From: a virus
Virus record (IMG/VR): IMGVR_UViG_3300021961_008157
Length of the DNA: 64,000 bases
Reading direction: 5' to 3' (one strand)
Shown here: positions 45,734 through 55,844 of the stretch, piece after piece
Layout: each line of letters begins with the position of its first letter
How positions within the stretch are numbered: position 1 is the first letter of the stretch
Notes under the pieces: model-generated
Seen by the model: the letters and a program-made list of their open reading frames with translations, nothing else
Databases searched by the model: none
Told to the model about the DNA's origin: nothing
Translations under genes and position numbers: made by a program

Positions 45734-46110
45734 CATCTGGTTGTTTATTTTACAAGGTAAGTCCTACCCCGGGTCTGGCTCAAAGTGCCAGTACAGCGGC
45801 CTTGCTACGGCTGTAGAACTTGATGTTCTTGCCGCTAACAGTTACGCTACCATTTGTAGATGCGTTTGCATTTACTAGTTTTATGCGATTAACGTTCGTC
45901 ATCTAACGTGCTGTCCAGTTCAATACTCTTTACTCAATCGATCGCTATGTCAGGCCCATCATAAACACATTGGATTTTGGATTCGAACCTTGTCCTAGTG
46001 TTGTCCATCTGCACTTCCCACAGTACTGAACCCTATGTGTTTATGGTGGACCTGCCCGGTACCGCCCCGGGGTCTTGAATCCTTTTCTATCACCTTCATA
46101 CAGCAATAAC
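45712..46110 (-). ncRNA. ssrA: circularly permuted (two-piece) tmRNA
   Basis: Acceptor piece ending CCCGG-GGCGGTA-CCGGG-CAGGTCC-ACCA (46044); 86-nt hairpin-closed spacer; coding piece starting GGGCCTG (45957) with G3.U70; tag ORF 45780-45869. Confidence 0.9.
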
Positions 46111-51311: not shown

Positions 51312-51394
51312 TGGTGGGCAAGGAGAGACTCGAACTCTCACTCCGAGGAACTGGCTTCTAAGACCAGCGCGGCTACCAATTACGCCACTTGCCC
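51312..51394 (-). tRNA. tRNA-Leu(TAG)
   Basis: Type II cloverleaf, loop CTTAGAA, CCA. Confidence 0.95.
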
Positions 51395-51402
51395 ATTAGT
51401 AT

Positions 51403-51431
51403 ATTGTAGTTGATTTTTTGTAGTTTGTCAA
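51403..51431 (-). promoter_or_regulatory. sigma70 promoter of tRNA-Leu(TAG)
   Basis: TTGACA-N17-TACAAT. Confidence 0.7.
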
Positions 51432-51437
51432 GTGTAT

Positions 51438-51511
51438 TGGAGCGGGATACCAGAGTTGAACTGGTGACTTGTCCTTGGCAAGGATATATTTTACCCCTAA
51501 ACTAATCCCGC
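51438..51511 (-). tRNA. tRNA-Gly(GCC)
   Basis: Cloverleaf, loop TTGCCAA, CCA. Confidence 0.93.
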
Positions 51512-51528
51512 TTTCGTTTATTTATTGG

Positions 51529-51604
51529 TGGCTCCTCGACCTGGGCTCGAACCAGGGACCTACGGATTAACAGTCCGGTGCTCTACCAACTGAGCTATCG
51601 AGGA
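51529..51604 (-). tRNA. tRNA-Asn(GTT)
   Basis: Cloverleaf, loop CTGTTAA, CCA followed by a second CCA. Confidence 0.95.
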
Positions 51605-51723
51605 ATATAATTGGTTCGGTTTGTCTGACACTTAACCAATGAACTCTAGAATTCATTACGCTAAATTTCAAACCCAGGGTATTTAACCCGCGACATCAAT
51701 ACACCGAAAGGTTTTGATGCGTG

Positions 51724-51785
51724 TCCTTGATAGCATCACTGCTATTTCGTCCTTGTTACGTTGGACTCATCAGAAGGATAACGTT
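51724..51785 (-). ncRNA. type I hammerhead ribozyme
   Basis: TCCTT-CTGATGA-GTCC(AACGTAACAA)GGAC-GAAA-TAGCA(GTGA)TGCTA-TC^AAGGA; predicted cleavage between 51729 and 51728. Confidence 0.92.
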
Positions 51786-51788
51786 GTT

Positions 51789-51863
51789 TGGTGCGCCCGG
51801 GGAATTCCGACATCCCGACCCAGCGATTATGAGTCGCTTGCTCTGCCCCTGAGCTACAGGCGC
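51789..51863 (-). tRNA. tRNA with CAT anticodon, probably tRNA-Ile2 (lysidine)
   Basis: GCGACTCATAATCGC anticodon arm like enterobacterial ileX; atypical T loop GTCGGAA; CCA. Confidence 0.82.
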
Positions 51864-51902
51864 ATATTATAGAAAAGCTGACCGTCAGCTTATATATAAC
51901 AA

Positions 51903-51915
51903 ATTTTAAAGAACA
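51903..51915 (-). promoter_or_regulatory. boxA-like antitermination element
   Basis: TGTTCTTTAAAAT upstream of the tRNA cluster. Confidence 0.6.
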
Positions 51916-51989
51916 GTTGCATCAGTATTTTGCCGTTATAGCAAACCTCTCACTCGTTTGAATGACACAGTCACACTCTGACACAAAAA

Positions 51990-52236
51990 TGCTCTGCGTC
52001 CCCCGGCGGTAATTATACTGCATCAACGTAGCCCACAGACAGGACCCACCGCATCACACACAGCCTCCACCCGCTTCCCGACAGGGACCGTTCTCGCATT
52101 GCCAGCGCCGGTTAGGTTGGACCGCATCTTTCGACGTAAGACTATTATGTCTTAGAACCACCCGTGGCTATCACACCACTTCAATCCTCCGGGTCAGAGT
52201 AGCCGTTGATTAAACGGCACGGTTTTTACTGTCTAA
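51990..52236 (-). ncRNA. unidentified highly structured ncRNA (~240 nt)
   Basis: GC-rich, ORF-free, many hairpins and long-range helices, directly downstream of a consensus promoter. Confidence 0.7.
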
Positions 52237-52241
52237 ACGTT

Positions 52242-53987: not shown

Positions 53988-55844
53988 TTAAAAGTTATAT
54001 TTTGCCGCAACATAAAAGGTCCTGCCTAATTGAGCATAACCCGATGGTTGCTCATATTTTTTATCAGTAATGTTATTTATTTTAAAACTTACTGTTAATT
54101 TTTCGTTAAACCACGATTCTTCAATGAAGAAATTATAAGTTGCTACACTATCGGCTTGAAAACGTGCAAATGTTGTACCATTTAGGTCATACATTTGTCC
54201 CATATAATTTGCTGACAGTCCAACTTTGAGATTGGGTTTTGCATGCCAAACAGCATGTGCATTACTAGACCACTGTGGGCGTCTTAGCTTTTGCATACCT
54301 AAACTATCAATGCTGTTATTATATGTTGTATTGGTCTTTATCTCAAATTGATTAAAGCGTTTTTTAAGTGCAACCTCAACACCTTGGCTGCTCGATACAC
54401 CTGAGTCATTTTGATATGTAGCAGTAAATGTGCTTGAGTCATACACATATGCAACGGCATCTTTGGTCTTAATATAAAAGAATGTAATATCAAACCAATC
54501 TTGTTTGTAACCAACTTCGTATGAAACGCTGCGCTCTGGATTAAGATTCGGGTTACCACTAAAACCAAAATTATCTACACCGTATAGTTCATAAAATGTG
54601 GGCAAGCGAAAACCATTTGCTACTGATGCTTTAAAGCCATGATAGTAGCCACCAATTCGGCCAGTTAAATAACGATTATATTTTGTATTGGTATCGGCCC
54701 TGGCAGATATGTTTATTAACTGGTCTTTGTTAAACTTATATACGCTATTTGCAAATAGTGCATTATTTGTACGGCTTGAGTCTACAGTAGAAACATACCC
54801 ACCACTGGTGGTATCAATTTTTCCTGCTGTGTTTGAAAATTCATAACCAGTTGTAGTTTCGAATTTGTTAGACATTGACCAAAGTTGTGTAACTAAAACA
54901 GTATTGTTTACGCTATTAAACTTATCAATGCTGCCTTGATTATTATATTTTCTATCATGCATGCTGCGATTGTAAATTATTTTAGTACGATCATTGCTTG
55001 CACTTGCTTGAAAATTGCGCCAGCGCCAGTTGGCTGTATAGTTGTCAACATCTGCATTGCTGCTGTCTAAATTTGTAATGTTGTAATTTTGAATATAGCC
55101 TGTGTAATAAGTCCAATCATTGGAAAACGTTTTTTGCTGTAATGCAAAGTTGTTAAAAGAATATGGATCGCGCTCACTACCACTGGCATGTACGCTAATG
55201 TTATCAGACTTTTCGTGTTCACCTTCAAAGCTGACAATGGTGTCTTGCAAACGATGCCCTAATTTAACTTTCTTGTTAAATGTTTTGTTGCTGCCATAAC
55301 TGGCCAAAACATAATTATTGGCAGTTACTGATGTGGTCATGTCAATAACACCGGCAACAGCATTTGCACCATACAAACTGCCAGCAGGCCCTTTAATAAC
55401 GCTCACACGATCAAGTCCAACTGATGAATGTTGGCTGATATCGTCGGCCCCGCTCACAGTACTTTCATCTCTAATAGAAATGCCATTTAGTGTTAGTAGT
55501 GTATGATTCGAGTCTGTTCCTCGCAAAAACAAACTGCTACTTTGCTTGGTAGTACCATTTTGCATGATGTTCATGCTAGTTGAATTAGACGTAGATTCTT
55601 GTATGGTTCGGAATGGATCTAAATAAACAGTATTCCAGGTATAGGTACTACTAGCTTGCTCTGTAGGTGTTCTTGCTAAAACAATAGTAACACGATATGG
55701 TTCTAAATCAACATTGGTTACATGTTGCCCGGCAACATAGACTGTTGTTAAAGATGACAGTTTGCCAACTTTTTTTATTTCATCTGCATGTGTATAAGCA
55801 GACAAAAACAAAACAAACAAAATTACTGGAAGTTTTTTTATCAT
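53988..55844 (-). CDS. TonB-dependent outer membrane receptor (BtuB-like)
   Basis: LFLRGTDSNHTLLTLNG, VIKGPAGSLYGANAVAGVI plug, GNPNLNPE, NITDKKY, C-terminal F. Confidence 0.88.
   Translation of the reverse strand: MIKKLPVILFVLFLSAYTHADEIKKVGKLSSLTTVYVAGQHVTNVDLEPYRVTIVLARTPTEQASSTYTWNTVYLDPFRTIQESTSNSTSMNIMQNGTTKQSSSLFLRGTDSNHTLLTLNGISIRDESTVSGADDISQHSSVGLDRVSVIKGPAGSLYGANAVAGVIDMTTSVTANNYVLASYGSNKTFNKKVKLGHRLQDTIVSFEGEHEKSDNISVHASGSERDPYSFNNFALQQKTFSNDWTYYTGYIQNYNITNLDSSNADVDNYTANWRWRNFQASASNDRTKIIYNRSMHDRKYNNQGSIDKFNSVNNTVLVTQLWSMSNKFETTTGYEFSNTAGKIDTTSGGYVSTVDSSRTNNALFANSVYKFNKDQLINISARADTNTKYNRYLTGRIGGYYHGFKASVANGFRLPTFYELYGVDNFGFSGNPNLNPERSVSYEVGYKQDWFDITFFYIKTKDAVAYVYDSSTFTATYQNDSGVSSSQGVEVALKKRFNQFEIKTNTTYNNSIDSLGMQKLRRPQWSSNAHAVWHAKPNLKVGLSANYMGQMYDLNGTTFARFQADSVATYNFFIEESWFNEKLTVSFKINNITDKKYEQPSGYAQLGRTFYVAAKYNF

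Follow-up and report, generated by a model that had tools for sequence, protein, structure and literature searches.

A hammerhead ribozyme motif behind a phage tRNA and the conserved RNA whose 5' end it may define

What does a self-cleaving ribozyme do when it stands directly behind a tRNA? Thousands of bacterial and phage hammerheads are known, and their purpose has been open since 2011. Here we examine a case in IMG/VR virus record IMGVR_UViG_3300021961_008157, a stretch of 64,000 nt that we call the window, in which a complete type I hammerhead motif on the minus strand (51778-51724) lies just past the encoded CCA of a tRNA(CAU). Coordinates are window positions, hammerhead elements are read 5' to 3' on the minus strand, and L-numbers denote the IMG/VR and metagenome loci with which the window was compared. 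The position suggests a ribozyme that trims the trailer of the tRNA in front of it. The comparisons described below lead us to think it probable, instead, that the hammerhead is the head of a module placed in a tRNA operon, that its purpose is to make the 5' end of the RNA that follows, and that RNase P makes the 3' end of that RNA at the downstream tRNA-Asn.

The motif is intact at all conserved hammerhead positions (C3 U4 G5 A6 N7 G8 A9, G12 A13 A14, and an N17 that is not G), has the closing pairs G10.1-C11.1 of stem II and A15.1-U16.1 of stem III, and is open at stem I, as in type I. Its stems I, II and III have 5, 4 and 6 bp. Minimum-free-energy folding of 51795-51715 gives precisely the hammerhead three-way junction. 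A sequence-only reading of this DNA had claimed the same core (CUGAUGA, GAAA, AUC) with three helices, and a ribozyme start about 4 nt past the tRNA CCA, all of which is borne out; its predicted cut at 51729/51728 agrees with ours, the consensus placing C17 at 51729. A strict descriptor, demanding the core, A15.1-U16.1, an N17 other than G and stems of at least 5, 4 and 5 bp, matches once in the window, at this site, and in none of 400 dinucleotide shuffles; a looser version with stems of 4, 3 and 3 bp matches in none of 100. The bare core pattern is at chance level, with three matches in the window against 0.92 expected. When a covariance model (R1) was run over 827 kb of unrelated phage loci, it found, beyond two copies of the module described below, only the hammerheads of L044 and L107, which makes it very improbable that a hammerhead would have landed by accident 4 nt behind a tRNA. 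Judged from these comparisons, the motif is in all probability a genuine hammerhead by descent, and it is likely, though with somewhat less assurance, to cut at the predicted bond.

The same reading had proposed that the ACGUU of the trailer can pair with the AACGU of loop II, and this predicted pseudoknot is likewise supported (shuffle P = 0.004) and is backed by covariation in other phages. It could form in all tRNA-adjacent hammerheads whose loop II has 10-11 nt: the ACGUU/AACGU of the window and L001 becomes UAGUCG/CGACUA in L012, UGUCG/CGACA in L026 and AGUCG/CGACU in L028. Shuffle P values are 0.004-0.05 in each of these four lineages, and the 5' strand ends 6 nt before C3 in all four. 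A tertiary contact of this kind is required for fast hammerhead cleavage (Perreault et al. 2011, PMC3088659).

Hammerheads in this position recur behind other phage tRNAs. Scanning IMG/VR with a pattern of T loop, 15 nt, CCA, at most 20 nt, CUGAUGAG and CGAAA gave 33 loci with 27 distinct sequences, and all the hammerheads found are located in tRNA arrays. The full hammerhead descriptor is passed by 16 of the 27, against 0.11 expected from shuffled flanks, and several of the remainder, looked at individually, prove to be hammerheads that have a bulge or a very long insert in stem III; in some 20 distinct IMG/VR phage contigs a tRNA CCA is followed at 0-15 nt by a type I hammerhead. In alignment A4 (11 sequences) 92.8% of cells pair, compared with 64% in shuffled alignments (none of 500 as high) and 28-43% with the partners slid, and in A6 (fitted to the model, 25 matches) 94% pair; these paired percentages are partly circular, having been obtained from seeds chosen with a descriptor that demands stems, and to that extent they must be set against the interpretation given here. 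Double changes occur in 12 of the 14 pairs of A4, the invariant pairs being G10.1-C11.1 and A15.1-U16.1, which are invariant again in A6. The counts rest on A4 and A6, as the MAFFT alignments A2, A5 and A7 are out of register in places. Independent of the circularity are the descriptor pass rate relative to shuffles and the R1 scores of sequences outside the seed (L010 50.5, L089 50.1, L113 47.8, L171 48 and L165 47.2 bits). Separately, we observed that L012 and L024 have a conserved RNA stretch in common after their hammerheads, CCUUGAGAAAGCUG, and that L033 and L036 have in common GGGGAAUAACUGG and a hairpin, GUGGGUGUGCAA...UGCAGCACACA.

Selection on the motif can be judged from L001, an 8.9-kb metagenome contig reached via a ketoacyl-synthase-like neighbour protein (homologue 92% identical), which carries the same RNA operon. 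Between window and L001 the linker and hammerhead are 96.9% identical, the RNA after the cut 95.8% and the short spacers 100%, while the neighbouring protein gene is 91.9% identical at all positions and 84.5% at third codon positions. Since the ribozyme and the following RNA both exceed the third-position identity, both are under purifying selection. The linker and loop II hold one change each, the only two in the hammerhead region, and both are unpaired. The tRNA bodies are only 56-82% identical, and the tRNAs in the same slots seem to have been exchanged or to have diverged with their anticodons kept. Three remoter relatives reached via the same protein, L002, L005 and L006, have no tRNAs and no hammerhead in the fetched stretches. 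In IMG/VR itself, neither an exact pattern from the window nor the neighbouring protein had a match.

Two side observations concern these tRNAs. Over the aligned stretch (window 51312-51863, L001:4060-4625) the four divergent bodies (CAU, Asn-GUU, Gly-GCC and Leu-UAG) stand among spacers, promoters, hammerhead and small RNA that are 96-100% identical, and look like swapped or fast-diverging cassettes within a fixed frame. The window's tRNA(CAU) has an odd T loop, GUCGGAA, its T stem has a U.U at the base, and it may be an impaired or unusual tRNA; in L001 the slot holds a different, canonical tRNA(CAU) (75.7 bits).

Past the predicted cut lies a 124-nt structured RNA with a fold z-score of -3.06. 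It has two hairpins, H1 and H2, and a long-range pseudoknot joins the H1 loop to the 3' end. This pseudoknot exists in four mutually compensating versions (UUCGGU/ACCGAA, UCCGGU/ACCGGA, UGUGGU/ACCACA and UAUGGU/ACCAUA); exact 6-mers and compensatory variants were used because G-U pairs made the test uninformative (chance 0.6-0.9). Among its copies the RNA is 115-139 nt long, with an invariant 5' tail beginning AAGGACACGC and a near-invariant 14-nt H1 loop, and no stem closing the 5' and 3' ends is conserved. Rfam returned no family for it in 51500-52000 at E up to 10.

This RNA and the hammerhead travel together. A scan for the 5' signature, AAGGACACGC plus H1, gave 18 IMG/VR loci, and upstream of each one can read a hammerhead, or what is recognisably left of one, with stem I GUCCUU/AAGGAC, except in L161, where the 100-nt flank stops short of the core. 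Between copies stems II and III drift, while stem I and the CACGC behind it stay constant along with the downstream RNA. The upstream neighbour is far less constant: upstream flanks could be read for 14 distinct loci, and just five of these (window, L001, L010, L014 and L038) have a tRNA immediately ahead of the hammerhead, the other nine having the same hammerhead and RNA with no tRNA there; where present, the tRNA is of differing type (CAU, Leu, Pro, Ile). A tRNA about 120 nt past the cut is found in six loci (window, L010, L038, L161, L162 and L163), and L010 has the same order as the window, with hammerhead, RNA and tRNA-Asn. A shorter pattern, ACCTTNNGGTGTA...GCG, gave mostly chance matches, of which only those with the flanking helix were kept. 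BLAST searches against cultured phages returned tRNA matches only for a 1-kb query, and no match for the hammerhead plus RNA or for an RNA copy that lacks the hammerhead; in one genome per prokaryote species the 5' signature of the module gave 11 matches, all due to chance and inside coding sequence, with no hammerhead or tRNA.

To place the window in a less biased sample, we took 114 distinct matches to a generic hammerhead pattern, which yielded 86 type I ribozymes. A tRNA lies within 25 nt on either side in none of the 86 and within about 450 nt in four; tRNA adjacency is a minority habit among phage type I hammerheads. The downstream side could be assessed for 79 type I hammerheads: 33 have a ribosome-binding site and an open reading frame (ORF) within 100 nt, and two have an H1-type RNA there. 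It follows from this sample that phage type I hammerheads usually head whatever lies downstream. Other hammerheads beside tRNAs do so too, standing ahead of a YrlA RNA in L011 and of the next tRNA in L021 and L017.

We therefore assign the ribozyme to the downstream RNA, because nine of the 14 readable module loci have no upstream tRNA and no hammerhead of the wider sample is within 25 nt of one. We infer the following course of events. During transcription the trailer just behind the CCA would pair with loop II, the three-way junction would fold, and the RNA would cut itself between C51729 and A51728. Because the cleavage site of a type I hammerhead is at the 3' edge of the ribozyme, the whole ribozyme would stay on the tRNA, giving an upstream piece made of the tRNA and about 63 nt of ribozyme with a 2',3'-cyclic phosphate end, and a downstream piece with a 5'-OH at AAGGACACGC; the geometry given in the sequence-only reading, with a cut about 60 nt past the CCA and these same end groups, does follow from type I topology. 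RNase P, cutting at the 5' end of tRNA-Asn, would then generate the 3' end of the RNA. The ribozyme would be the front of a portable two-part module, a hammerhead with a pseudoknotted RNA of 115-139 nt, and its main job would be a defined RNA 5' end; the upstream tRNA precursor would be split off as a side effect and have its 3' end matured by host nucleases. Adjacency to a tRNA would come from the module sitting inside a tightly packed tRNA operon.

Besides the circularity noted above, several results weigh against this account. The Rfam Hammerhead_1 model (RF00163) matches 51779-51723 with 26.6 bits, below its gathering score of 34, and none of the 16 related tRNA-adjacent hammerheads reaches any Rfam hammerhead gathering threshold; the L001 hammerhead scores 26.7 against RF00163. 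A gathering threshold is a curation cut-off and not a biochemical feature, and a long loop II and stem III lower the score. The E-value of the match is 0.00024 in a 501-nt region and 0.03 for the whole window against 4227 families, or about 7e-6 per single family (our own division by the number of families, not program output). The remnants in L162 and L163 have GUAA for the core GAAA and a long stem III insert, and are possibly inactive. Copies of the RNA in L134, L135, L143, L147 and L157 have the same 14-nt loop and the ACCGAA partner and are without a hammerhead, and the ribozyme is therefore not indispensable to the RNA. Finally, in L021 and L017 a tRNA begins 8 and 14 nt past the hammerhead cut, respectively, an arrangement that the making of a 5' end does not plainly explain, because RNase P would cut nearby anyway. 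As a matter of arrangement, the five copies without a hammerhead stand directly after the stop codon of an ORF and ahead of a promoter-like TATAAT.

The alternative suggested most directly by the position is that the hammerhead is a dedicated processor of tRNA 3' trailers, a counterpart of the phage theta ribozymes, which would release the precursor independently of RNase E and leave exonucleases to finish the 3' end. Such a role would suit a ribozyme that starts 4 nt past the CCA and draws on the trailer itself for its pseudoknot, it would account for the contigs with hammerheads 0-15 nt after a CCA, and it has a precedent in theta ribozymes as phage ribozymes at tRNA 3' ends (PMC10879173). 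The sequence-only reading had implied trimming of this kind, and here we part from it: cleavage would leave a structured ribozyme with a cyclic phosphate on the tRNA, which is not a mature or near-mature end, and the inconstant type and frequent absence of the upstream tRNA, together with the lack of tRNAs beside hammerheads of the wider sample, argue against a tRNA partner. Moreover, it is stem I and CACGC that stay fixed alongside the downstream RNA, and not stems II and III. We consider trailer processing unlikely, and only slightly less so than a role as a general transcript insulator or 3' cap, which would uncouple neighbouring RNAs, or shield the upstream RNA from 3' exonucleases, with no special tie to a neighbour. 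Phage hammerheads are indeed found between many kinds of gene, as in L044 and in the 33 of the wider sample with an ORF downstream; Perreault et al. (2011, PMC3088659) showed hammerheads on the flanks of single genes within a polycistronic RNA, and neither neighbour-specific model suits the tRNA-hammerhead-tRNA loci L021 and L017. A specific partnership is nevertheless favoured by the strict co-occurrence and co-conservation of the hammerhead with one particular downstream RNA, and a cap would impede the maturation of a tRNA precursor more than it would promote it.

That the motif is an inactive relic or a chance look-alike is less probable than either of these. The score below the Rfam gathering threshold would fit such an origin, as would a fold energy no better than that of shuffles (z = -0.57), a cleavage triplet (AUC) and a stem I (5 bp, then an A.C mismatch in sixth place) that are not optimal, and the core change in the related copies L162 and L163. 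The core of the window motif is nonetheless fully intact, 400 shuffles yield no such motif, conservation is 97% against 84.5% at synonymous sites, and all three stems and the pseudoknot covary.

A bolder extension of our main interpretation, which we regard as doubtful, is that the module represents a new class of portable phage RNA gene with the hammerhead as its self-processing head. Such genes would encode an RNA of 115-139 nt whose 5' tail is fixed and which has a 14-nt hairpin loop and pseudoknots that interlock; they would insert among tRNA genes or between protein genes, and their RNA would need the 5'-OH that the ribozyme makes. To judge from its location, the released RNA may act on the tRNAs or translation machinery of the host, or on defences that target the same. 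Three other identifications were tried and set aside. YrlA (RF02553), whose model has a Ro-binding stem formed by the two ends and a tRNA-like domain, has no match in 51500-52000 at E up to 10. The H1 loop, AACCUUUCGGUGUA (14 nt; H1 region 51689-51721, minus strand), agrees at every position with the apical part of the Rfam COG2908 RNA consensus, but an identity of H1 with that RNA was rejected, with a match of 16 bits only, none in eight other copies of the module and no literature found; the resemblance is unexplained. Circularisation via a second, downstream ribozyme was dropped when Rfam and R1 scans found none.

Features of the RNA operon around the hammerhead (all on the minus strand; rows run in the direction of transcription).
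Feature	Position	Strand	Sequence or basis
Promoter, sigma-70-type consensus	52270-52242	-	TTGACA-17-TATAAT; 12/12 match; conserved in L001
tRNA(CAU) with encoded CCA (51791-51789)	51863-51789	-	Rfam 51863-51792, 46 bits; not called by ARAGORN
Linker, CCA to ribozyme, 4 nt	51788-51785	-	AACA; sequence
Pseudoknot 5' strand	51784-51780	-	ACGUU; pairs with AACGU of loop II (51762-51758), 5 Watson-Crick pairs
Single nucleotide between ACGUU and stem I	51779	-	A; sequence
Stem I, 5' strand	51778-51774	-	UCCUU; partner AAGGA 51728-51724; covaries across family
Catalytic core C3-A9	51773-51767	-	CUGAUGA; invariant in A4
Stem II	51766-51763 and 51752-51749	-	GUCC/GGAC; non-closing pairs covary, G10.1-C11.1 invariant
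Loop II, 10 nt	between stem II strands, within 51766-51749	-	AACGUAACAA; holds pseudoknot 3' strand 51762-51758
Core G12 A13 A14	51748-51746	-	GAA; sequence and Rfam match
Stem III with GUGA tetraloop	51745-51730	-	AUAGCA-GUGA-UGCUAU; 4/5 pairs with double changes, A15.1-U16.1 invariant
Predicted scissile bond, C17/A1.1	51729/51728	-	hammerhead consensus applied to sequence
Stem I, 3' strand; predicted 5'-OH end of downstream RNA	51728-51724	-	AAGGA; AAGGACACGC invariant in 16 aligned copies
Structured RNA after predicted cut, 124 nt, ending at first base of tRNA-Asn	51728-51605	-	fold, homologues, covariation
Hairpin H1, 14-nt loop 51713-51700	51721-51691	-	helix covaries
Hairpin H2	51689-51677	-	fold
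Long-range pseudoknot, H1 loop to 3' end	51708-51703 / 51620-51615	-	UUCGGU/ACCGAA; four Watson-Crick variants
tRNA-Asn(GUU)	51604-51529	-	ARAGORN; Rfam 68.7 bits

The operon runs from its promoter through a leader RNA, tRNA(CAU), the hammerhead and the 124-nt RNA to tRNA-Asn and tRNA-Gly, and is free of protein genes; no minus-strand ORF of at least 50 amino acids lies between the promoter and tRNA(CAU). The ORF-free leader (51865-52240, minus strand; about 340 nt) extends from the perfect promoter to a terminator-like hairpin and then a TATAAT immediately ahead of the tRNA. In the middle of the leader (about 52105-52030) identity to L001 is only 65%, with apparent compensatory changes (CGC...GCG against CGU...ACG) that suggest a structured RNA. 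A second promoter-like site, TTGACA-17-TACAAT at 51403-51431 (minus strand), ends about 8 nt before tRNA-Leu, and the tRNA-Leu transcript may therefore be almost leaderless. Further away, the window has scattered tRNAs and a permuted, two-piece transfer-messenger RNA (tmRNA) at 45842-46105 (minus strand; Rfam 96.6 bits); L014, one of the contigs with the hammerhead module, also has a permuted tmRNA (136 bits). A group I intron match at 39476-39289 (minus strand, 53.2 bits) lies just upstream of an odd 92-nt tRNA-Ile(UAU) call at 39211-39120. Pfam and PHROG matches include radical SAM enzymes, a carbamoyltransferase typical of phage auxiliary genes, a phage-type exonuclease, a hybrid kinase and a TonB-dependent receptor, and this gene content points to a large phage rich in auxiliary genes, probably a giant phage. 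The receptor gene (plug and barrel; 53988-55844, minus strand) is missing from the otherwise syntenic L001 and looks inserted between a STAS-domain gene and tRNA-Arg.

For the study of hammerheads at large, the window would offer a concrete and testable job, that of cutting free the 5' end of one specific, conserved and uncatalogued RNA that travels with the ribozyme. On a practical level, with no hammerhead of the IMG/VR scan at an Rfam threshold, a whole set of phage tRNA-operon hammerheads is invisible to routine annotation, and the compact pseudoknotted RNA in phage tRNA clusters deserves a study of its own. In the literature that we searched, including a 2019 review, we found neither a tRNA-adjacent hammerhead nor the module, but most subscription journals were outside the search and absence is not proof.

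Among known systems, YrlA and the small stable RNAs of phage tRNA clusters resemble the 124-nt RNA as structured non-tRNA RNAs among phage tRNA genes, but the latter matches neither YrlA nor any other Rfam family; YrlA was found only in the unrelated locus L011 (6031-6224), where a tRNA-adjacent hammerhead is followed by a YrlA match (69.7 bits, gathering score 69) beginning 11 nt past the cut. The gene-flanking hammerheads of polycistronic prophage transcripts, such as the triple arrangement at ardA (Perreault et al. 2011), likewise would cut a multi-gene transcript into defined units, which here are a tRNA and a non-coding RNA and not mRNAs. RAGATH-1 (RF03152) is also a hammerhead core stabilised by a pseudoknot, but there the pseudoknot involves the loop of an additional 5' hairpin and takes the place of helix II (PMC11300833); the window motif keeps a regular 4-bp stem II (GUCC/GGAC), and only its loop pairs with a single-stranded tail. 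RF03152 has no match in the window, and some relatives match it weakly (25-27 bits against a gathering score of 56.3). The type I pseudoknot hammerheads of phages and bacteria (PMC3088659; RF00163, clan CL00010) have the same core, the same junction open at stem I, a paired contact of loop II with the tail that holds stems I and II parallel, and a phage intergenic setting; the window hammerhead differs in scoring below every Rfam hammerhead threshold, in taking the 5' strand of its pseudoknot from a tRNA trailer and in being coupled to one specific downstream RNA.

The theta ribozymes (Kienbeck et al. 2024, PMC10879173) share its place, as small self-cleaving ribozymes immediately 3' of a phage tRNA that leave a 2',3'-cyclic phosphate upstream; the paper that describes them calls a ribozyme part in tRNA 3'-trailer processing previously unreported and does not mention hammerheads. 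HDV-like families gave no match in the whole window (E up to 1) and none in 51500-52000 (E up to 10). Theta ribozymes have an HDV-like fold, a nested double pseudoknot with a catalytic C, and cut at their own 5' edge, which frees the tRNA with a short trailer or none, whereas the hammerhead in the window would cut at its 3' edge and stay on the tRNA. Set side by side, the two suggest that a ribozyme next to a tRNA need not be there to trim it.

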